From an uncultured Gammaproteobacteria bacterium (GTDB taxonomy: Bacteria; Patescibacteriota; Patescibacteriia; SBBC01; CAIJZX01), in assembly GCA_964383765.1 (NCBI GenBank), contig CAYLHT010000003.1, positions 6,328 through 70,327 of the forward strand: a DNA stretch of 64,000 nt, in the 5' to 3' direction. The translations under genes were made by a program, and so were the position numbers. The notes below the pieces were generated by a model. The model searched no databases and had not been told where the DNA came from. It was given only the letters and a program-made list of their open reading frames with translations. Positions 2 through 61,157 of this stretch are shown here, piece after piece (the first letter of the stretch is position 1; every line of letters starts with the position of its first letter).

Positions 2-3000
2 GAGTCCGGCACGGTCTACACCTTGCCAACTGGAACGTATAACGTTTCAGAAACTGGTGGGCCAGCTGGGTACACCGCGAGCTTCTCGGCTAGCTGCAGC
101 AACGGATCAATTGACGTCATCAGCGGCCAGCAAGCGGTCTGCACGATCACCAACACCCGCGACTCCGGCACCATCATCGTCAACCAGAAATTGGACACCG
201 ATGGCAATGGCTCGTTTGAAAGCGGTAACACTACCGCCAACGGCTTAGGCTACGCCTGGAGCCTTGATGGCGGTGCAACCAATCGCACAATGGGTAGCTC
301 AGCCGCGGTCACGACGATTGATAACCACGCAGTTAACGAAAATGGTGTCAGCGGATATCACTTCGTTGGCTGGTACTGGACCAATGACGGAACGCATTCT
401 TGCACGAACCCGCAAGCCACCAGCTTACCGGTCAACTTTACGGTCGCCAATGGCGAAACAAAAGACGTGACGCTGTGCGCGGCTCGTGATACCGGTACGC
501 TCGTCATCCAAAAGGATGTGATCAATCCGGATAACGGCGCGGTCAGCGACACGCACCAGTTCACGGTCACCGTGTCTGGTCAATCCAACGGCACAATCGC
601 CGAAGGGACAAACGCGACCTACAGCAACTTGCCAACCGGCAGCTACACCGTCACTGAGTTAGCTGACGGTAGCTACACCTTCGTGTCCTACAGCCTCGAC
701 ACCGATGCCAATGCCGGCAACGGCGCTCAGGTGACGGTCTCGAAAGATCAGACCACCACCCTGCTCGTCACCAACAAGCAGAAGAAAGTCAGCATCGTGG
801 TCCACAAGAATGTCGTCGGAATTGATGGTCAAACCGACGTCAGCGACAGTCACGGCTTCACGGCTAATGTGAATAGTACTAGCGGCACGATTGCTGAAGG
901 TTCGAACTTCACGACGCAAGTCAACCCCGGTAACGTTCACGTTTCTGAAAATGCTGACGCGAATTACGCCTTGGTCAGCATTACCCCGGCCGACTTCACG
1001 GTTCACAGTGGCGATCAACCGGTCAACGTCTATGTCGTCAACAAACAATTGCCAGCCCACATCACGGTCTACAAAGACGTGCGGGCTTGGGATGGCAGCG
1101 ACGTCAGCGACGGCCACACCTTCATGGTGACGTTGAATAACATCACCAAGAACTTCGGCGAGAACGCGCCGGCCAGCTACGACGTGGCTCCGGGTACATA
1201 CAGCGCCAATGAATTGGCGGATGCCAACTACACGCTGGACTCAATCAGCCCAGCTCAGGTAACCGTCGGTAGCAACGGCTCAGCCCAAATCACCGTCACG
1301 AACAAGCAGAATAAAGTCTTCGACTGGACGGTCACGAAGACCGGCCCAGCTACAGTTCAAGCTGGCGGTCAGATGACATACGACATCAGCTGGCAAATCA
1401 ACGCCAATAGCAATACCCAGCTGGCCAACATCACCGTGACTGATCCGCTGCCAGCGCACACCAGCTTCGTGTCCTGCAGCAACAGCTGTGATCACTCTAC
1501 CTCAACAATTAGTTGGAGCATTCCGGGTCCATTTGCGCCGGGTCAATCAGGCGTCGTCCACCTCACCGTGGCCGTCGATAATAACCTGAACCCGTTGCAA
1601 ATCACAAACATTGCGACCGTCTGCGGCGATCAACAGCCGTTTGTCCCAACCTTATCACTGACTGCCCTCAACCTCGATACGGTCAACGGCACCAGCCCGA
1701 CGCACGTCTGTAAGAACGGCTCGGTGGTGACACAACTGTTGTCGAGTTACACACTGGGTGTTAGCAAGACTGACAATCAGACCACGACCACCCCTGGCTC
1801 GACTTATAGCTACACGGTTAACTGGAATGTGAGTGGCAACGCCGCATCGACTAGCGCGTTAGTGGTCAAAGACACACTTCCGGCCCACACCAGTTTCGTC
1901 AGCGCCAGCAACGGCGGGACGAATAATGCCGGCGTCGTCACCTGGAATCTGGGTTCGAAGAGCGTCCCCTCCAACGGCACCCTGACGGTGACCGTCAAGG
2001 CCGACGATCTGATTCGGAACGGCACTGATCTACACAACACCGTGCAACTCTGTGACGACAGTCAACAGTGCGTGACTGGTGACGACCACACTCGTGTGGT
2101 GTCTGACTACCAAGTCAACGTCACCAAGACGGGCGCGCCGGAACCTGCCAACCCAGATCAGAACGTGACCTACACGCTGAACTGGACGCTGAGCGGCAAC
2201 GCGCCGGTCGACAGCTTGACCCTGACTGATACTTTGCCCGCCGGTGTAAGTTTCGTCGGCGCCAGCAACGGCGGCACCAACAATGCCGGGACGGTGACTT
2301 GGAACCTCGGGAGCTTCCCGACCGGCCAGGGCAATGGGAGCGTGACGGTGACTGTTCACCTGCCAACCCCATTAGCCAGCGGTACCACCTTCACCAACAC
2401 GGCCCAGATCTGCGGTTCAAGCACGAGCCTTGGTGATCAAGCGCCGGTCAATCACTGTGACAGTGATCAATTCATCACCCACGTGACCTCAGACTTCGGT
2501 GTCACGATTGACAAAGCGCGTCGCCCGTACACTGCCACAGCCGGGAATAATGGAACCCACACGCAGACCAGAGCAGTGGGCGGCAACGCGCCGGTGAACA
2601 CGTTAGCTCTCACTGACACTTTCCCCGCCGGTGCAAGTTTCGTCAGGGCCAGCAACGGCGGCACCAACAATGCCGGGACGGTGACCTGGAACCTCGGCGC
2701 ACATGTGCCGGGTGATCATGGCACGTTGACCCTGATTGTGATGGTCGCTAGCCCGCTGCAGAATGGTTCGCACCTCAGCAACACGGCTCAGGTTTGTGGC
2801 ACCAGTGGTCAAACCACGCACTGCAACACCGACACGGAAATCACGACCGTCAACAGTGACTTCAGCGTGGGCTTGGTCAAGACTGCGGCCAGCACCGTTA
2901 ATGCCGGTGATCAACTGATCTACACGCTGCACTGGACCCTGAACGGAAACGAATCGGTCAACCCAGTCGTCATCACCGATGCAATTCCGGCCAACACCAC

Positions 3001-4816
3001 GTTCGTCAGCGCCAGCAACGGCGGCACGAACACTGCCGGCACCGTCACCTGGAACCTCGGCGCCCATGTGCCGGGTGATAGCGGTGACGTGACCCTCACG
3101 GTCAACGTCAACAAACCGCTCGCCAATGGCACGGTCATCAGCAATACCGGCCAAGTCTGTGCGACGGCCACGAACCAGAACGATACCACCACGCAACACT
3201 GTGGCACCTCCACCACGACCACCACGGTCAACAGCGACTTCAGTGTTGACATCGTCAAGACCGCACCGAGCACAGTCAACGCTGGTGGCAGTCTGTCCTA
3301 TGTCTTAACCTGGAGCACGTCTGGCAACGCACCGATTGATAATCTGGTCATCACCGATCCGTTACCTGCCAACACCACATTCGTCAGCGCCAGCAACGGC
3401 GGAACAAACAACGCCGGTACAGTGACTTGGAACCTCGGTGCACATGCGCCGGGTGATCACGGTTCAGTCACCCTGAATGTAACGGTGGCCTCACCTCTGC
3501 AGAATGGAACGCTCATCACGAACACCGGGAAAATCTGTGGTGTCAGCGAGAGTGTCGATGGACAACGCTGTGACACAGACACGACGACCACAACGGTCAC
3601 TTCTGACTTCGGTGTCGATATTGCCAAAGCTGGTCCAGCCACAGCCACTCCTGGTAATCAACTGACCTATGTCCTGACCTGGACCACGACCGGCACAACG
3701 CCGATCTCCAGCGTCATCATCACCGACCCATTGCCAGCCAACACATCGTTTGTCAGCGCGACGAATGGCGGAACGAACAACGCCGGTACGGTCACCTGGA
3801 ACCTCGGCGCGCATGTGCCGGGTGATGGCGGAACGGTCACGTTGGTCGTGAAACTCAATTCCCCATTAGCGAATGGCACCAAAGTCGATAACACCGGTCA
3901 AATCTGTGCGCAGGCCACCGGAGTGGATGGGCAAAAGTGCGACACCAGCACCACCACCACGACGGTTAGCTCGTCACCGAGCTTGTCGATTGCTAAGACC
4001 AATGATGTCGTCGGCTTCACCAATCCCGGCAAAACCGTGACCTACACGGTCACCGTCACCAATGCCGCGGGTGCGACCGACACTGCTCACACCGTGGTCC
4101 TGACCGACGTGCTGCCGAGCGGCTTCACCTACACCGTCGGTGGTGGGTCAACCAAGAATTTCTCCTTGGGTGACATCGCGCCGGGCGCTTCGGTGATCAC
4201 GACCTATACTGCGGTCATCAACGCTGCCCAAGCTGCTGGCACCTACACCAACACGGCCTCAGCTCAGGGCAACAACACCAGCAAGGTCAGCGCCACGTCG
4301 AATGTCGAAGTCCGCGTGCCGCAAATTCTCGGTGCCACAACTGCTCCGAACCTGACGATTACCAAGACCGTCAAGCCAACTACGGCCAACCCGGGACAGA
4401 CCATCACGTATACCGTTACGATCAAAAACACTGGTGACGGGGATGCGAAGAACGTCGTCCTGACTGACACCTTGCCGTCCGGTCTGACCTTCCTTGACAC
4501 CGGTAAGTCAACGCAGACGTGGGATATTGGCACCTTGGCCGCTAACCACGATCGGGTGATCAATTACCTCGTCAAAGTTGGTTCAACGGTCAAGGCCGGA
4601 ACCTACAAGAACCTGGCCGTCGTGACCGCTTCGGATCTCAGCCCGCAGCAGGCCACAGCGACCTTGACAGTGAAGGTTCCGCAAGTACTGGGCTTAGCCA
4701 CCACCGGCGTTTCGCTCCGCGATTATCTGACCTTCGCCGCTGGTCTCATCCTGATGGGTCTCGGCGTCACCTGGCTCGTCCGGGGAAATCGCCGCCATGC
4801 AACCGAACTCGCTTAA
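2..4816 (+). CDS. Giant cell-surface protein, 5' partial (frame open to window start). It carries ~6 tandem ~380-bp repeats encoding DUF11/CnaB-like Ig-fold modules, and a C-terminal LATTG sorting signal followed by a TM helix and an RGNRRH tail.
   Basis: 1597-aa ORF with no stop upstream of position 23. Repeated TLPA(H/N)TSFVSASNGGTNNAGTVTWNLG modules. C-terminus: LATTG + hydrophobic stretch + RGNRRH, a classic sortase substrate architecture. Confidence 0.75.
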   Translation, partial: ESGTVYTLPTGTYNVSETGGPAGYTASFSASCSNGSIDVISGQQAVCTITNTRDSGTIIVNQKLDTDGNGSFESGNTTANGLGYAWSLDGGATNRTMGSSAAVTTIDNHAVNENGVSGYHFVGWYWTNDGTHSCTNPQATSLPVNFTVANGETKDVTLCAARDTGTLVIQKDVINPDNGAVSDTHQFTVTVSGQSNGTIAEGTNATYSNLPTGSYTVTELADGSYTFVSYSLDTDANAGNGAQVTVSKDQTTTLLVTNKQKKVSIVVHKNVVGIDGQTDVSDSHGFTANVNSTSGTIAEGSNFTTQVNPGNVHVSENADANYALVSITPADFTVHSGDQPVNVYVVNKQLPAHITVYKDVRAWDGSDVSDGHTFMVTLNNITKNFGENAPASYDVAPGTYSANELADANYTLDSISPAQVTVGSNGSAQITVTNKQNKVFDWTVTKTGPATVQAGGQMTYDISWQINANSNTQLANITVTDPLPAHTSFVSCSNSCDHSTSTISWSIPGPFAPGQSGVVHLTVAVDNNLNPLQITNIATVCGDQQPFVPTLSLTALNLDTVNGTSPTHVCKNGSVVTQLLSSYTLGVSKTDNQTTTTPGSTYSYTVNWNVSGNAASTSALVVKDTLPAHTSFVSASNGGTNNAGVVTWNLGSKSVPSNGTLTVTVKADDLIRNGTDLHNTVQLCDDSQQCVTGDDHTRVVSDYQVNVTKTGAPEPANPDQNVTYTLNWTLSGNAPVDSLTLTDTLPAGVSFVGASNGGTNNAGTVTWNLGSFPTGQGNGSVTVTVHLPTPLASGTTFTNTAQICGSSTSLGDQAPVNHCDSDQFITHVTSDFGVTIDKARRPYTATAGNNGTHTQTRAVGGNAPVNTLALTDTFPAGASFVRASNGGTNNAGTVTWNLGAHVPGDHGTLTLIVMVASPLQNGSHLSNTAQVCGTSGQTTHCNTDTEITTVNSDFSVGLVKTAASTVNAGDQLIYTLHWTLNGNESVNPVVITDAIPANTTFVSASNGGTNTAGTVTWNLGAHVPGDSGDVTLTVNVNKPLANGTVISNTGQVCATATNQNDTTTQHCGTSTTTTTVNSDFSVDIVKTAPSTVNAGGSLSYVLTWSTSGNAPIDNLVITDPLPANTTFVSASNGGTNNAGTVTWNLGAHAPGDHGSVTLNVTVASPLQNGTLITNTGKICGVSESVDGQRCDTDTTTTTVTSDFGVDIAKAGPATATPGNQLTYVLTWTTTGTTPISSVIITDPLPANTSFVSATNGGTNNAGTVTWNLGAHVPGDGGTVTLVVKLNSPLANGTKVDNTGQICAQATGVDGQKCDTSTTTTTVSSSPSLSIAKTNDVVGFTNPGKTVTYTVTVTNAAGATDTAHTVVLTDVLPSGFTYTVGGGSTKNFSLGDIAPGASVITTYTAVINAAQAAGTYTNTASAQGNNTSKVSATSNVEVRVPQILGATTAPNLTITKTVKPTTANPGQTITYTVTIKNTGDGDAKNVVLTDTLPSGLTFLDTGKSTQTWDIGTLAANHDRVINYLVKVGSTVKAGTYKNLAVVTASDLSPQQATATLTVKVPQVLGLATTGVSLRDYLTFAAGLILMGLGVTWLVRGNRRHATELA

Positions 4817-5456
4817 TACTTCCGAGTTAGCTACCTTCCCCCATCGCCGCAAGGCGGTGGGGGTTTGGTGGCGCGTGGTCCCGATCGCGATGATCGTGAT
4901 TGGTGCCACCGTCATCAGTTACCCACTCTGGCCTGGGATTAAATTCGCATTAACAAAACCCAAACCGGTCATTCCTTTTCATACCAAGCTGGTCAGTACA
5001 CCCAGTGCTTTTGCAGCTTTACCATCGCTCCCGGTCATCACCGAGCTGGCCACGCCAAAGGACAACCGCCTGGTCATTCCCAGCATCGGGGTGAACATGC
5101 CAATCTTAGAAGGCCCGACCCAAAAAACCTTGGACCGAGGTGGCATTTGGCACATTCCGAAAACCTCTGATCCGGTCAAAGGTGGAAACATCGTCCTCTC
5201 CGGGCACCGTTGGCAATATCTGCCACCCAGCTCAACCACCCTCTATCTCCTGGATAAAGTGAAAATCGGCGAGCCGGTCCTCGTCTACTGGAAAGGACAA
5301 GAATATGATTACACGATTGATGGTCGCCAGGTCGTTAATCCTGACCGGGTTGATATTCTCAAAGATACCCCCCAACCGAAGTTAACCATTTTTACCTGTA
5401 CCCCACTCTACTCCACCAAACAACGCCTCGTCCTGTTTGGACATCTTATTTCATAA
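4797..5456 (+). CDS. Sortase (class E-like, consistent with an LAXTG substrate)
   Basis: N-terminal TM anchor, LSGHR active-site His motif, TLxTC motif (LTIFTCTP) and a conserved C-terminal Arg. Lies immediately downstream of the LATTG protein. Confidence 0.8.
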   Translation: MQPNSLNTSELATFPHRRKAVGVWWRVVPIAMIVIGATVISYPLWPGIKFALTKPKPVIPFHTKLVSTPSAFAALPSLPVITELATPKDNRLVIPSIGVNMPILEGPTQKTLDRGGIWHIPKTSDPVKGGNIVLSGHRWQYLPPSSTTLYLLDKVKIGEPVLVYWKGQEYDYTIDGRQVVNPDRVDILKDTPQPKLTIFTCTPLYSTKQRLVLFGHLIS

Positions 5457-6546
5457 CGCTTCACGTATGCGCCTGTCGCGATGGTCAGTCATTTCTGTCT
5501 TCAGTCTCCTTGTGCTGAGTCTCGGGTTCGTGAGTCGCACGAATGCCACTACCACGAAAATTTCTGTTAGCCCAAGTTCGGCTACTCTGCAAGCTGGTCA
5601 TACCCAAACCTTTATTGTGACGGCCACGGATAGTACCGGAACAACGAAAGACGTCACTGCCGATTCGACGCTCTCATCAAATGACCCCAACGGCAAAGTC
5701 AGCGGCGCAACGTACACCGCCGGCCAAGTTGGCAATTGGACGATTCAAGTCGCCTACCAAAGCTTTGTGACAACCGCCAAAGTCAGTGTCAGTGCTGGCG
5801 ATGTGGCTGAGCTCGTGATTAACCCAAATTCAGATCCCGAAGTCATCTTAACTGGGACCAGAAAACGTTTTAGTGTTGAAGCCTTCGATGCCAAACACAA
5901 TCCACTCGACACCCCACACATCACCTGGAGCGTGATTGGAGCGATTGGCTCGATCGACAGTACGGGTGTCTTCACCCCAACTGGCATTGGCACCGGAAAA
6001 GTTCAGGCGCAATCTGATTCCGTCACCGGGCAAGTTGCCATTGAAGTTCGTCAGGCGCCCGTGACCAATACGAATTCATCCGTCACAACGAATACCAATA
6101 CCACCACGAACACAAATCGCCCGACGAACCGCAATACGAATTCGAGCAACACGAATTCGGCGACCAACGCGAACACCAATGTGGCCACGAATCAAAATAC
6201 GAACTCCTCCAACGTCAACGCGACCAACGCGAACACCAATACAAGTACTCTGGTAACCTCATCCCAGTGCACCTCGCTTAAACCCTGGGTTTGGACTGTG
6301 ATGCTGATTCTCTTCTTAATCCTCGTCGCCATCCTGTACGGCTTAGTACCAGTCACGAAAATCTGGCCAGTGGTGGTCGCCTTAATCAGCGCTGGCGTCC
6401 TAGCCTTTATTCAACGTAAGTACGACTGTAACCTGCAGACCTGGTGGGCGTGGGTGATTACACTCGGCACCGTCGCCTTGACCGCCTTAGCCATCCGCTC
6501 GAATCCAAGTACCGGCGGACAGAATCAAACGCCATCAAATTCCTAA
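5437..6546 (+). CDS. Secreted/membrane protein with a signal peptide, two Big_2-like Ig domains, a T/N-rich low-complexity linker and a C-terminal multi-TM anchor
   Basis: Translation shows a hydrophobic N-terminus, Ig-like motifs (ATYTAGQVGNWTIQV...), a TNTNSS repeat tract and C-terminal hydrophobic helices. Confidence 0.55.
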   Translation: MDILFHNASRMRLSRWSVISVFSLLVLSLGFVSRTNATTTKISVSPSSATLQAGHTQTFIVTATDSTGTTKDVTADSTLSSNDPNGKVSGATYTAGQVGNWTIQVAYQSFVTTAKVSVSAGDVAELVINPNSDPEVILTGTRKRFSVEAFDAKHNPLDTPHITWSVIGAIGSIDSTGVFTPTGIGTGKVQAQSDSVTGQVAIEVRQAPVTNTNSSVTTNTNTTTNTNRPTNRNTNSSNTNSATNANTNVATNQNTNSSNVNATNANTNTSTLVTSSQCTSLKPWVWTVMLILFLILVAILYGLVPVTKIWPVVVALISAGVLAFIQRKYDCNLQTWWAWVITLGTVALTALAIRSNPSTGGQNQTPSNS

Positions 6547-6555
6547 TCGATGAGA

Positions 6556-6589
6556 TACTCCGCCCCGGCCGTCACGGCCGGGGCGGTTG
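6556..6589. terminator. GC-rich hairpin (CCGCCCCGGCCG-TCAC-GGCCGGGGCGG) between convergent genes; likely a bidirectional terminator
   Basis: Perfect 11-12 bp inverted repeat seen directly between the 6546 (+) and 6593 (-) gene ends. Confidence 0.55.
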
Positions 6590-6592
6590 GTA

Positions 6593-7405
6593 TTAGTGCA
6601 ACCAAACAATCGCCAATACGGTCAGACCGAGAACGATCCGATACGCCGTAAACCACGCGTACGAATGACGACTGAGGAATCTGAGCAACGCCCGGATGAC
6701 AACGTACCCCACGATCGCCGCTACGGCCGCACCGACGATAAACGCTAACCGTTGATCGCTCGTTAATGATTCGTGACGAAGCTCAAAGAGTTTTTTCAGG
6801 ACCGCGCCAGCGGTGATTGGCGTGGCGAGTAAAAAAGAAAACCGCGCCGCCGACGGCCGGTCAAAACCTAGCCACCGCCCAGCGGTAATCGTCACCCCCG
6901 AACGTGAGATGCCCGGCACGACTGCGAACATTTGGGCTAGCCCAACCAAGAGCGCCTGCCACCACGTAATGCGATCCAACGCTCGGTCACTGCGACCAAA
7001 TCGATCGGCTAGCCAGAGGACAATACCCGCACCAATCAACGTTAGTGCCACGAGTGCGGGTTGCCGAAATGTGGATTCGGCCGCTGATTCAAGTAAAGCC
7101 CCCGCGATTGCGCCAGGAATGGTGGCAATCAATAGCCACCAAGCCAAGCGCTGATCCGGATCGGACATCTGCCAGCGGCCAAAATTCCGAAACCAGGATC
7201 GGACCAATCGCCACAGATCGTGCCAAAAGTACGCGAGTAAGGCCAACAGTGTACCCAGGTGGAGAGCCACATCAAACGTTAGATCATCGCCAACCGAAAA
7301 GTGTGTTATGCTGTGCAGGAGCAACAAGTGTCCGGAACTAGAAATTGGCAAGAATTCCGCTAGGCCCTGCACCGCCCCGAACAACGCCGCTTCACCAAGT
7401 ATCAT
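6593..7405 (-). CDS. uppP: Undecaprenyl-diphosphatase
   Basis: LAEFLPISSSGHL motif plus a multi-TM profile typical of UppP/BacA. Confidence 0.85.
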   Translation of the reverse strand: MILGEAALFGAVQGLAEFLPISSSGHLLLLHSITHFSVGDDLTFDVALHLGTLLALLAYFWHDLWRLVRSWFRNFGRWQMSDPDQRLAWWLLIATIPGAIAGALLESAAESTFRQPALVALTLIGAGIVLWLADRFGRSDRALDRITWWQALLVGLAQMFAVVPGISRSGVTITAGRWLGFDRPSAARFSFLLATPITAGAVLKKLFELRHESLTSDQRLAFIVGAAVAAIVGYVVIRALLRFLSRHSYAWFTAYRIVLGLTVLAIVWLH

Positions 7406-7414
7406 AGATTCATA

Positions 7415-7870
7415 TTGATTATGACTATTCCGTCGTTACTGATTATTCCGCTCGCCGCTGGTTTGTTGACCCAGGTCACCAAGTTTATCATAGAAATCGT
7501 GCATGGCGAATGGCGGTGGGAAGCCTTCTTCGAGTACGGGGGCATGCCTTCTGCCCACACTGCTTTCGTGGTCTCATTAACGACGGCGGTCGGTTTACGG
7601 GAGGGCCTGGCGAGTGCAGACTTTGCAATCGCCTTTATTTTCTCGCTCTTGGTGATCCGCGACGCTACTGGTTTACGCCAATTCCTCGGCCAGCACGGGC
7701 GCGTCTTAAATATGCTGATTCGTGAATTACCGGACCAAGAAGAACGCAAGTTCCCACAAAAATTAGCTGAGCGGCTCGGCCATACTCCTCTGCAAGCCCT
7801 GGTGGGTGGCTTGATTGGGTTGCTGTCGGCGTTGGTGCTGTATCGCTGGCTACCGATCACGCCGTACTAA
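7415..7870 (+). CDS. Divergent PAP2 / acid-phosphatase-related membrane protein (DUF212-like)
   Basis: MPSAHTAFVVSL...IRDATGLR motif pattern of the YuiD/DUF212 family. Confidence 0.5.
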   Translation: MIMTIPSLLIIPLAAGLLTQVTKFIIEIVHGEWRWEAFFEYGGMPSAHTAFVVSLTTAVGLREGLASADFAIAFIFSLLVIRDATGLRQFLGQHGRVLNMLIRELPDQEERKFPQKLAERLGHTPLQALVGGLIGLLSALVLYRWLPITPY

Positions 7871-40685: not shown

Positions 40686-42308
40686 TCACGAAGGCAGCTT
40701 GGCTTCCTTGGCCCGTTGATGAGCCTCAGAATCGCCGCGCGGCCAGTCGTAGTCGTTCTGATCCACGAACTGGAGCAAGTCGGAGATGCGTTCACCGTCT
40801 CGGGCAACCATCTGCCGATAGATCTCCTGGCACACCAGCCGGTAGCTGCGATGGCCTTGCGGGCCGGTCCGCAGTTCGAGTAGGTGTTGGGCTTCCCGGT
40901 CGTTGAAGCCAAAGCGACAACGGATGTTGTGACCGAGGAGCACGACATACTGTGCCGTCTCTCGGCCGAGATCGGCCGCGATGGTCGCGTACAGCGTCTC
41001 CACTCGCTTGACGCACTCGCGGACCTGCGGTTCGAAGCCGGCTTCGCGAATGTCGTTCAGCTGTTCGGTGAACCCGAGGTCGACGGTGTACAGCTGTCGT
41101 TCCTGGGTCATCATGCGGTGGCGATGGAGATCGCGGTAGATCCCGAGGTCGAGCACGAGTTCCATCTCCCAGGGATAACCGAATTCCATTGCTCGGCCGA
41201 CACGATCGCGTCGCGTCTGGCGCTGACCGATGTAGGTCTGGCGGATGTTCCGGCGTTGCACCGGCGACAATTTCCCCACCAGGTCAATCAGCTGCGCCAT
41301 TGAGTGACGGCTATACGGAAACAGCATGGCCGCCAGCTGGCCGTCTTCTCGAACATCCTGTCCGATCAGACGCACGCCCGACTCACTCGCCCAAGGCTTG
41401 ACCGCGAATAAGAGTTCGTCGGCTAGCCGTTGCATGGCTTGGCGCGTGTTCACCAGGAAGTCGCTGCGACTTGCCCGCTGAACGTAGCGCGGAATGACTC
41501 GCTTGAGCGAGGCGTGGAGCTTCGTCGCAAGTTCCTGGGCCTCTGGTTGGTCGCTCGAGTAGAGCTTCCGCAGGAGGTGCTCCAGGTTACGGCCGTTGCC
41601 GTGAATCCCGACGTTGGTGCGGGTGCACGCCGGCAGCAGGATCCGAAGCGTGTCGCAGGCCTTCGTGCGGATGTCCATCTTGTAGGTCCGTTCGAAGTCC
41701 TTGCGTTGCTCGTCGTCCTGACACTGCGCGTACCTGATCTTGCCTTCGCCGGTCCGAATCTCGTACTGAGCGTCGTCCAGCGGCTTGCGACGCCGGAAGT
41801 ACTCCTGCATCGGCTCGATCAGGTTGACGTAGGTCTGAAAGACGAAGTCCATGGTCTGCTCGAAGGCCGCAGCATGGCGTGAAGCCATGATCCGTGGTTC
41901 GCGCAGATACCGGAACCTGCCTTGGTCGTCTCGCTGATCGTAGAACACGTAGCGGGACGACTGCTCGATGAAGGCTAGCAGCCGGCAGTCCTCGACGAGC
42001 TTGGTCATGACGTTGCTGACCTCTTCCATCGAGACCCAAGCACTTTCGAGTTCCTGGACCGAGTCATCACCGTATTGGATGAGCACGCGGGTGATCAGCC
42101 CATCGGCGTGTTCTGGATCAAGCTGTCCGTCTTCGACAAATTCCTTCAGCAGTGTCTCGCGGAAGCCACCCTTGGCTCGGCTGTACCGAGCGTAGGCCGC
42201 CCCAATCATTCCTGGCATCTTCTTGGGGAAGACGATGTAGACGTCCTCGTCTGGGTCGGAGACGTACTCCTTGAGGAGCTCGCGTTGTTCTGGAGTCCAG
42301 GTGGTCAT
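40686..42308 (-). CDS. Long (540 aa) ThyX-family (FAD-dependent thymidylate synthase-like) protein, possibly a tandem/duplicated fold
   Basis: Two ThyX-like helix regions (…NGRNLEHLLRKLYS… and …HNIRCRFGFNDREAQHLLELRTG…) and an RHR motif (DLHRHRMM). Lies directly upstream of thymidylate kinase. Confidence 0.45.
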   Translation of the reverse strand: MTTWTPEQRELLKEYVSDPDEDVYIVFPKKMPGMIGAAYARYSRAKGGFRETLLKEFVEDGQLDPEHADGLITRVLIQYGDDSVQELESAWVSMEEVSNVMTKLVEDCRLLAFIEQSSRYVFYDQRDDQGRFRYLREPRIMASRHAAAFEQTMDFVFQTYVNLIEPMQEYFRRRKPLDDAQYEIRTGEGKIRYAQCQDDEQRKDFERTYKMDIRTKACDTLRILLPACTRTNVGIHGNGRNLEHLLRKLYSSDQPEAQELATKLHASLKRVIPRYVQRASRSDFLVNTRQAMQRLADELLFAVKPWASESGVRLIGQDVREDGQLAAMLFPYSRHSMAQLIDLVGKLSPVQRRNIRQTYIGQRQTRRDRVGRAMEFGYPWEMELVLDLGIYRDLHRHRMMTQERQLYTVDLGFTEQLNDIREAGFEPQVRECVKRVETLYATIAADLGRETAQYVVLLGHNIRCRFGFNDREAQHLLELRTGPQGHRSYRLVCQEIYRQMVARDGERISDLLQFVDQNDYDWPRGDSEAHQRAKEAKLPS

Positions 42309-60986: not shown

Positions 60987-61063
60987 AGCCCCTCTAGCTC
61001 AGAGGTAGAGCGCCTGGGCGCGTCATCAACCAGGAGGTCTGCGGTTCGAATCCGCAGAGGGGC
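60987..61063 (+). tRNA. Non-canonical tRNA-like gene: normal acceptor, D and T arms, but a 12-nt anticodon loop (GCGCGTCATCAA) on a perfect CCTGG/CCAGG stem
   Basis: Manual cloverleaf; 77 nt; no encoded CCA. Possibly CAT or GTC in the loop; a 5-nt insertion or pseudogene. Confidence 0.45.
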
Positions 61064-61076
61064 TCAAGATTTCTTT

Positions 61077-61152
61077 AGGGCTGGTCGCTCAACAGGCTAG
61101 AGCACCGGGCACTAACCCCCGGAGGTAGGAGGTTCGAGTCCTCCCCAGCCCA
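61077..61152 (+). tRNA. Non-canonical tRNA-like gene: acceptor with one bulge, 9-nt D-loop, and an 8-nt anticodon loop CACUAACC (central CUA) on a perfect CCGGG/CCCGG stem
   Basis: Manual cloverleaf; T-arm GGAGG-TTCGAGT-CCTCC; discriminator A. Confidence 0.4.
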
Positions 61153-61157
61153 CAACT

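Follow-up and report, generated by a model that had tools for sequence, protein, structure and literature searches.

The window (the whole stretch of 64,000 nucleotides analysed here, from contig CAYLHT010000003.1 of assembly GCA_964383765.1) opens with three adjacent genes that were read as a surface-display operon for a sortase-anchored fibrillar adhesin. The host is a Kerfeldbacteria-like Patescibacterium, an ultra-small member of the candidate phyla radiation (CPR). The operon reading was given a probability of about 0.7. It is carried by a conserved sorting signal at the C-terminus of the giant product of the first gene, by a sortase gene overlapping that first gene, and by a stalk of isopeptide-type domains. 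The elements of the unit are:

2–4816, + strand: substrate gene, coding for a fibrillar-adhesin stalk plus a sorting signal at the C-terminus; open reading frame (ORF) truncated at its 5′ end by the window edge, 1604 aa present
4797–5456, + strand: sortase gene, 219 aa (PF04203, TIGR01076)
5467–6546, + strand: third gene, coding for immunoglobulin (Ig)-like domains and three transmembrane (TM) helices, 359 aa; conserved directly after the sortase
6560–6586, no strand: perfect 12-bp all-G/C hairpin found by the terminator scan, past the third gene and ahead of the convergent uppP

The substrate reading frame runs from base 2 to the TAA at 4814–4816 and counts 1604 codons from base 2. The earliest in-frame start, a TTG at position 23, would give 1597 aa; the gene is nonetheless clearly cut by the window edge. 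The ATG of the sortase gene (position 4797) falls inside the substrate gene, the two ORFs overlapping by exactly 20 nt, and a Shine-Dalgarno-like GGGGA lies 9–13 nt 5′ of this ATG, also within the substrate gene. The third ORF has its true start at the ATG at 5467 and begins 10 nt past the sortase stop. No terminator- or promoter-like site was detected by the terminator scan between any of the three genes, and the hairpin at 6560–6586 is likely to be their (bidirectional) transcription terminator. The three genes were considered as one transcription unit because of the 20-nt overlap with its Shine-Dalgarno-like element, the lack of an internal terminator and the strong hairpin after the third gene. 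The sortase is thus apparently co-transcribed with the substrate gene.

The following mechanism is proposed from the established behaviour of sortases and of CnaA/CnaB domains. The product of the first gene would be a Sec-exported adhesin of ~2,200 aa with a variable N-terminal head. Its long and rigid stalk would consist of at least four CnaB-like and nine CnaA-like CLIPPER domains, whose Lys, Glu or Asp, and Asn residues would auto-catalyse intramolecular isopeptide bonds. The precursor would be held in the membrane by the LATTG motif, the TM segment and the basic tail. The sortase, with a type-II anchor, would then cut between Thr (Thr1568) and Gly via Cys201, with His137 and Arg210, giving a thioacyl intermediate. 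An amine nucleophile, for which the lipid II stem peptide is the likeliest candidate, would receive the adhesin, which would so be covalently linked to peptidoglycan. Once anchored, it would project tens of nanometres from the cell and probably serve in attachment to a host cell or a surface.

Several points weigh against this account. The adhesive head and the signal peptide of the window protein lie outside the window. The Pfam family Gram_pos_anchor (PF00746, E ≤ 0.01), named as a check in the original prediction made for this DNA, gave no match to the signal, and the LPXTG-anchor models of NCBIfam (E ≤ 1, last 89 aa) were likewise silent. The sortase is slightly closer to the pilus-polymerising class C than to the housekeeping classes, and a second small substrate ending in LA(A/E)TG, with an invariant Lys-Pro, is present in the sister loci L015–L022. 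Because of this class C affinity and of the two-substrate sister loci, a pilus-like or two-component variant of the system has a low probability.

The sortase and its class

The 219-aa ORF encodes a genuine sortase, for which transpeptidase activity is predicted. It scored 88.1 bits with PF04203 (cutoff 26.6) and 64 bits with TIGR01076 (cutoff 39.35), and contains the motifs VLSGHR and LTIFTC. A basic N-terminus (HRRK) is followed by a TM helix at aa 24–53 (nt 4866–4955), a structured linker (aa 54–90) and a β-barrel (aa 91–217). The catalytic residues His137 (5205–5207), Cys201 (5397–5399) and Arg210 (5424–5426) are invariant in 36 relatives. An AlphaFold2 (AF2) model was obtained with a mean predicted local distance difference test score (pLDDT) of 86, and Foldseek matched it to all sortase classes (TM-score about 0.5, probability 1.0). 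The original prediction of a TM-anchored sortase with LSGHR and TLxTC motifs, adjoining its substrate with a 20-nt overlap, was borne out; Pfam, TIGR, PDB and fold matches identify the ORF as a sortase.

To survey the locus, one genome per species was scanned with the 36-member alignment of the sortase clade, and 69 loci were retrieved. Nearly all are from Patescibacteria, and several are in metagenome-assembled genomes (MAGs) evidently mislabelled 'Gammaproteobacteria'. Among the third party annotation (TPA) MAGs, nine entitled 'uncultured Gammaproteobacteria bacterium' carry a locus of Patescibacteria type (L004, L009, L017, L027, L031, L034, L038, L041 and L045). Their sortases are 37–72% identical to that of the window with unchanged synteny, and their taxonomic labels are probably wrong.

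We place the enzyme in a sortase clade specific to Patescibacteria, apart from the curated classes A–F. With the class models, whose cutoffs are 140–166 bits, it scored 72.6 bits for class C, 66 for class E and 62–65 for class D, none of them near the cutoff. The clade has an invariant motif of its own, G-x-W-[HR]-x-P, and its substrates carry LAxTG, LPxTG or VDTG. The window enzyme would act like a housekeeping or substrate-dedicated anchoring sortase. Dedication of the sortase to the adhesin is plausible from their conserved adjacency, as seen within the 64-kb window.

Among the alternatives, the one that survives best is of pilus type: a class C-like polymerase would use a lysine to link the giant protein, then a tip adhesin, with a further subunit, instead of or before wall anchoring. 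We regard it as unlikely. Class C came first by hidden Markov model (HMM) score, by PDB sequence (8t28, 55 bits; SrtE1, 41 bits) and by fold (5k9a/2xwg/3tbe, E about 3e-12, 28–34% identity; SrtE1, E 4e-10). The von Willebrand factor A (VWA) heads of some orthologues resemble the pilus tip adhesins RrgA and SpaC, TIGR04226 'fimbrial isopeptide domain' matches are present, and the two-substrate sister loci mentioned above point the same way. However, the score of 72.6 bits with the class C model NF033745 is far from its cutoff of 160. The DP[FWY] lid motif was found in 0 of the 36 clade members. There is no C-terminal TM anchor, the sortase ending 9 residues after the catalytic Arg, as do all its relatives. 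The full-length substrates examined, seven of them giant orthologues and three of them small ones from the sister clade, show no YPK pilin motif. Between adhesin and sortase, neither the window locus nor its 8 closest relatives have a second substrate gene. Finally, a protein of ~2,000 aa is already a fibre.

Still less probable is the 'class E-like' assignment of the original prediction, by which an actinobacterial housekeeping-type sortase would read the P3 Ala of LATTG through a β3/β4-loop tyrosine mechanism. LAxTG is the class E signature (PMC5148588), and LATTG is carried here and by 17 locus-encoded proteins. The only TM anchor of the enzyme is N-terminal, from GxWH to the catalytic His it has the same spacing as class D/E enzymes, and three relatives are named 'class E sortase' by NCBI. 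These features are outweighed by the following. With the class E model NF033747 the window sortase reached 66 of the required 160 bits, and relatives so named reached only 68–80 (or 56–80) bits. Class E was defined by Kattke et al. by a β3/β4 loop that is longer and holds a conserved tyrosine (Tyr229 of SrtE1), and by an insertion of 21 residues in the β6/β7 loop (PMC5148588). The class E structures 5uus, 5go5 and 5utt read GHYxxT...GNFAVAGHR where the window sortase reads WHIPKT...GNIVLSGHR with identical spacing; therefore the tyrosine position corresponds to Ile120, and every LATTG locus has Ile or Leu there. The β6/β7 loop has 14 residues (181–194) in the model and across the clade, without the class E insertion. 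The sortase domain shows no length difference with class C and is 6–11 residues shorter than those of SrtE1 and Thermobifida fusca SrtE. Foldseek and phmmer placed SrtE1 below classes C, A and D. The clade also uses LPxTG and VDTG, and co-variation of the substrate P3 residue with the class E tyrosine position was looked for and not found.

The sorting signal

The C-terminus of the substrate reads VPQVLG-LATTG-VSLRDY-LTFAAGLILMGLGVTWLV-RGNRRH-ATELA, with two parts:

4694–4708, + strand: LATTG sortase recognition motif (aa 1565–1569), within VLG-LATTG-x-x-RDY
4724–4798, + strand: hydrophobic membrane-spanning segment YLTFAAGLILMGLGVTWLV, then the basic tail RGNRRH; stop-transfer part of the signal

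The layout, namely LATTG, a 5–6-residue spacer, an 18–19-residue hydrophobic span and a basic tail (here RGNRRH), is common to all orthologues. In the eight loci with a sortase at least 59% identical to that of the window, the giant ORF upstream ends without exception in VLGLATTG-x-x-RDY, a hydrophobic stretch and an Arg-rich tail. When all ORFs in the loci were counted, LATTG endings were found in 17 proteins, always beside this sortase clade. A survey of C-terminal motifs in at least 38 mostly fragmentary database proteins, of which 13 had a readable C-terminus, found LATTG also in homologues P0165, P0166, P0167 and P0173. More widely, in ~30 clade loci across Patescibacteria the gene directly upstream of the sortase codes for a protein with xxTG, a TM segment and a basic tail. 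In distant members of the clade these proteins end in LPTTG, LPQTG, LPKTG, LPETG or [AVT]V[DE]TG. The giant surface protein and the LAXTG-type tripartite signal that had been proposed for it thus both hold: 1604 aa of stalk domains and sorting signal lie in the window, and homologues keep the C-terminal motif.

It could be argued that no sortase processing takes place, the C-terminal segment being a plain membrane anchor, LATTG an inter-domain linker and the adjacency of the genes a coincidence. A comparable linker, VPQILGATT, does precede the last CLIPPER domain, and the curated anchor HMMs are silent. Yet VLGLATTG and x-x-RDY are invariant amid diverging flanks, the xxTG/TM/basic-tail proteins recur directly upstream of the sortase in the ~30 loci, and the overlapping reading frames imply co-expression. 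This explanation is very improbable.

Two variants of the signal were observed in other loci. In the more distant loci L024, L026 and L028–L032, the giant ORFs upstream of the sortase close with a TM segment and a basic tail, preceded by RVLG-E-[AVT]-V-[DE]-T-G-A-G. Such a signal of 'VDTG' type, which lacks Leu at P4 as well as Pro/Ala at P3, would be uncommon among sortase motifs. In the sister sub-clade L015–L022 (sortase 47–50% identical), two substrates precede the sortase, first a giant LATTG protein and then a small one. The small substrate has 221–239 aa, with a signal peptide, an invariant Lys-Pro near the mature N-terminus and one CLIPPER-like domain, and ends in LAATG, LAETG or LPATG. 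This order recalls a tip-plus-base pair of pilins; examples are L021 (82–7134 and 7227–7910) and L016 (3151–7179 and 7231–7896).

The stalk and its repeats

The part of the substrate upstream of the sorting signal was divided into:

2–169, + strand: remaining C-terminal portion of a SpaA/prealbumin-like (CnaB-type) domain truncated by the window edge (PF17802)
170–496, + strand: 109-aa β-rich unit (aa 57–165) without family assignment (sub-threshold Flg_new and List_Bact_rpt matches only)
497–1318, + strand: three CnaB-like (DUF5979/SpaA-type) stalk domains, aa 166–262, 263–351 and 352–439 (PF19407)
1319–4693, + strand: nine tandem CLIPPER (DUF11, CnaA-like) domains of 117–142 aa each (PF01345), starting at 1319, 1745, 2105, 2492, 2858, 3236, 3605, 3974 and 4343

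The truncated first domain has a PF17802 SpaA match at aa 4–26 (24.7 bits) and aligns with the SpaA_2 region of L004, the closest orthologue. The 109-aa unit is poorly conserved in L004. The first CnaB-like domain (unit 2) matches PF19407 DUF5979 with 34 bits (cutoff 25), and units 3–4 are 42–44% identical to it. These units are 88–97 aa long, each with a Lys...Glu...Asn pattern. In a six-sequence alignment, the Glu and the last-strand Asn are invariant, and the first-strand Lys is kept in the three window units. DUF5979 and SpaA_2 are CnaB-like isopeptide families (PMC12617251).

The nine CLIPPER domains were recovered with PF01345 (DUF11; 296 bits in 9 stretches), DUF11 having been named as a check in the original prediction. 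TIGR01451 gave 196 bits, a profile built from the units also found nine, and TIGR04226, an isopeptide fimbrial domain, scored 86 bits on the substrate. Of the columns in the nine-unit alignment, just five are invariant (Lys, Asp, Pro, Gly and Asn). A search of PDB sequences with the substrate gave no match, and the crystal structure 9IFR, the sole CLIPPER domain solved, was reached only by the nine-unit profile, which aligned with it end to end (E 1.3e-6). Matches of the same profile to designed armadillo-repeat proteins in the PDB were rejected as spurious. In the alignment to 9IFR, the Lys falls on K715, the Asn on N806 and the Asp on the lone Asp of the LNDTL strand. K715 and N806 are joined by an isopeptide bond in 9IFR, and the LNDTL Asp is catalytic (PMC12617251). 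The Lys/Asp/Asn triad of the units would thus correspond to the isopeptide-forming residues, and bonds are predicted to form there. Just past the Asn, units 2–7 contain one Cys pair each, as reported for about 30% of CLIPPER domains (PMC12617251). Taking both families together, every stalk domain keeps an isopeptide triad (Lys, Glu or Asp, Asn).

One unit departs from the others. In CLIPPER unit 4 (2513–2590, aa 838–863) the first two strands read DKARRPYTATAGNNGTHTQTRAV where the canonical form is KxxxPxxxxAGxxLTYTLxW. The other units, like the L004 orthologue, have the canonical strands; unit 4 keeps the Lys/Asp/Asn triad. A compensated frameshift was considered and rejected: stops interrupt the other two frames, neither of which shows similarity.

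The L004 orthologue (60% identity) aligns with the window protein starting at its residue 636; therefore ~635 N-terminal residues are missing here. Intact orthologues begin with a signal peptide followed by variable heads. The head is a VWA domain in L010 and L011, and no recognisable head domain was found in L004, L005 or L008. SdrD_B and SpaA matches occur in the stalks of orthologues. A signal peptide, then a variable head, a stalk of isopeptide domains and an anchor at the C-terminus follow the plan of a fibrillar adhesin, as it is known for CLIPPER proteins (PMC12617251). The signal peptide of the giant substrates is conserved and unusually long, with the pattern ..(L/I)xPRK(S/T)x(K/R)ER(V/L)WKTLNV(V/I)VG(I/V)(T/S)T(I/L)LNVS...AxA. 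It was seen in L004 (2042-), L008 (3254-), L010 (1451-), L011, L014, L023, L028 and P0165. The NCBIfam signal-peptide models (YSIRK and KxYKxGKxW types) did not match it, and it may be a lineage-specific export signal.

The CLIPPER array had been described as at least six near-identical ~380-bp DNA repeats, a hotspot for recombination and assembly collapse. This description had to be revised on each count. The array has nine domain units, not six, and they are not near-identical in DNA. Tandem Repeats Finder (TRF), run by default or with a minimum score of 30, reported no repeat of ~380-nt period. Gap-free extension of the repeats gave 60–73% identity across 230 nt. In global alignments, units 2–7 are 56–67% identical to each other in DNA and 40–67% in protein, while against units 1, 8 and 9 their DNA identity is ~50%. 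Exact words common to two units reach 38 nt at most, and most pairs share 23 nt or less. The impression of identical repeats arose because only the 23-mer quoted in the original prediction is strongly conserved among the units. With no more than one mismatch it stands at 1895, 2252, 2639, 3002 and 3380, where chance would give 0 copies; a further copy at 3749 has 5 mismatches. The copies are spaced 357–387 nt apart and encode a conserved strand, F-V-S-A-S-N-G-G. From their sequences the repeats are old, diverged protein domains. With 56–67% identity and no shared word above 38 nt, homologous recombination or assembly collapse at the array is implausible; both the collapse of short reads and RecA-mediated unequal exchange appear unlikely.

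The contiguous C-terminal CLIPPER array comprises nine units here, seven in L004, four in L005 and L011, three in L008 and two in L009 and L010. L004 lacks equivalents of units 6–7. The copy number thus shifts between species, on an evolutionary scale. That the array is unstable or mis-assembled, which would make the nine-unit structure unreliable, can practically be dismissed: the DNA is metagenome-derived and the copy number differs among orthologues (2–9), but all units keep an intact frame and triad, units 1–5 are collinear with L004 at ~60–80% identity, and the divergence measured above, on which TRF is empty, is unambiguous to short-read assembly and a poor substrate for RecA.

The third gene, the surroundings and related systems

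The product of the third gene is identical to database protein P0121 and has 43 database homologues, all unannotated. Homologues lie directly after the sortase in ~20 loci and within ~2–4.5 kb in more distant ones. The AF2 model shows a signal peptide and two Big/Ig-like domains (pLDDT ~97), joined through an Asn/Thr-rich disordered linker to three TM helices at the C-terminus. The invariant residues are C268, C321 and W326-W327-x-W329, with both Cys on the predicted outer face. The best fold match of the ectodomain is to the Big domains of LigA (8gyr, 4.8e-14), and it also resembles S-layer Big domains. An exhaustive search of 1.84 billion proteins returned 13 representatives of the TM module.

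A conserved membrane protein whose gene directly follows that of a sortase has, to our knowledge, its sole precedent in SafA. This actinobacterial protein of 52 aa, with a single TM helix and an FPW motif, shields the sortase from signal peptidase (PMC9282373). Homology of the third gene to SafA was rejected: 359 aa, two Ig-like domains and three TM helices stand against 52 aa and one TM helix, and the sequences are unrelated. Their likeness is one of position only. A bolder reading, which we hold as tentative and rather doubtful, is that the clade forms a distinct Patescibacteria-specific sortase class with a relaxed P3 (Ala, Pro, Val-Asp). The lineage-restricted Ig-3TM protein would then be a dedicated partner that escorts or positions the enzyme or the adhesin, a functional analogue of SafA, and the whole would form an attachment organelle of CPR epibionts other than Saccharibacteria. 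The features behind the new class are the G-x-W-[HR]-x-P motif, the short β6/β7 loop and the absence of a lid.

Downstream of the hairpin, the operon is flanked by:

6593–7405, − strand: UppP/BacA (285 bits)
7415–7870, + strand: PAP2-like DUF212 phosphatase-type gene

The order of these two genes is kept in the Kerfeldbacteria relatives L001 and L003. Such lipid-carrier phosphatase-type neighbours are consistent with a peptidoglycan-making monoderm envelope, and their linkage to the operon may be coincidental. The other 57 kb of the window contain housekeeping genes (DnaE, GyrB, PheT, ThrRS, GatB, transketolase, an AddA-like helicase-nuclease, UppP and Fpg). Therefore the locus was considered as part of the chromosomal core and not as an island.

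Other observations were made further along the window. Two adjacent atypical tRNA genes lie on the + strand at 60988–61065 and 61078–61153. The second folds into a clean cloverleaf with an 8-nt anticodon loop, CACUAACC, in which ARAGORN reads a 4-base anticodon 'ctaa'. The first, called Thr-CGU, has a 12-nt loop in its anticodon arm. Both score ~54 bits on the Rfam tRNA model, below the other four tRNAs of the window. Reading the gene at 61078 as an amber suppressor was rejected; TAG is an ordinary stop, closing 14 of 53 genes. A ThyX ORF at 40686–42308 (− strand; 540 aa, two Thy1 matches) appears to be a tandem-duplicated flavin-dependent thymidylate synthase.

Outside cultivated Saccharibacteria, published work on host attachment by CPR bacteria has centred on type IV pili. 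The present locus is a concrete and conserved candidate for such attachment: a wall-anchored, isopeptide-stabilised fibre of ~2,000 aa with a variable head. A literature search found no paper analysing a CPR sortase or its substrates; sortases were already annotated in CPR genomes (PMC7143001). The locus adds to a known kind, the sortase-anchored fibrillar adhesin. Its arrangement is an ordinary one of Gram-positive style and leaves the understanding of sortase biology unchanged. For annotation, LAxTG alone does not identify class E, and the 'class E' labels of the relatives are not supported by the current curated model. The LPXTG-anchor models miss such substrates, and CPR surface proteomes are probably under-called. 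A short DNA word recurring at domain spacing can mimic near-identical repeats when the units are ~60% identical.

In comparison with class A sortases and their microbial surface components recognizing adhesive matrix molecules (MSCRAMMs), such as Staphylococcus aureus SrtA with Cna and SdrD, the proposed mechanism is the same (tripartite signal, cleavage after Thr, transfer to lipid II), and the stalk is likewise built of B-type repeat domains, as the SdrD_B and SpaA matches in orthologues indicate. The motif of S. aureus SrtA is LPXTG whereas LATTG is found here, and the window sortase is 22–27% identical to class A. S. aureus SrtA serves many dispersed substrates; the window sortase is encoded beside one substrate, as judged in the 64-kb window only.

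The class C pilus systems (Streptococcus pneumoniae SrtC/RrgA, Corynebacterium diphtheriae SrtA/SpaC, Actinomyces oris SrtC1/SrtC2) give the best similarity in the catalytic domain, at 28–34% identity and equal length. They too encode the sortase beside a substrate made of isopeptide CnaA/CnaB-type domains, and some orthologues of the window protein share their VWA head. Unlike them, the window locus lacks the DP(F/W/Y) lid, the C-terminal TM helix, the pilin motif and a major-pilin gene. It has one giant substrate in place of three pilins, and its sortase scores under half the class C cutoff.

With the class E systems (Streptomyces coelicolor SrtE1/SrtE2 with chaplins, A. oris SrtA with SafA), the window locus shares the Ala at P3 (LAxTG), a single N-terminal TM anchor without a lid, and a conserved membrane-protein gene immediately after the sortase (SafA there, the Ig-3TM gene here). 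It differs in that its sortase misses the HMM cutoff, has Ile for the β3/β4 Tyr and lacks the long β6/β7 insertion. Class E systems belong to Actinobacteria and the window locus to Patescibacteria.

The survey in which CLIPPER adhesins were described does not discuss CPR bacteria (PMC12617251). The anchor of its Acinetobacter silvestris adhesin B9T28_05395 (9IFR) is an OmpA-like domain, that of the window adhesin a sortase signal. Unlike the A. silvestris protein, the window stalk mixes CnaB-like and CLIPPER domains, and its host is a CPR bacterium. The two adhesins have in common a tandem CLIPPER stalk with a conserved Lys/Asp/Asn triad, and the window protein further shares with CLIPPER adhesins the disulfide-closed loops predicted in many units and the general plan of signal peptide, head, stalk and anchor (PMC12617251).

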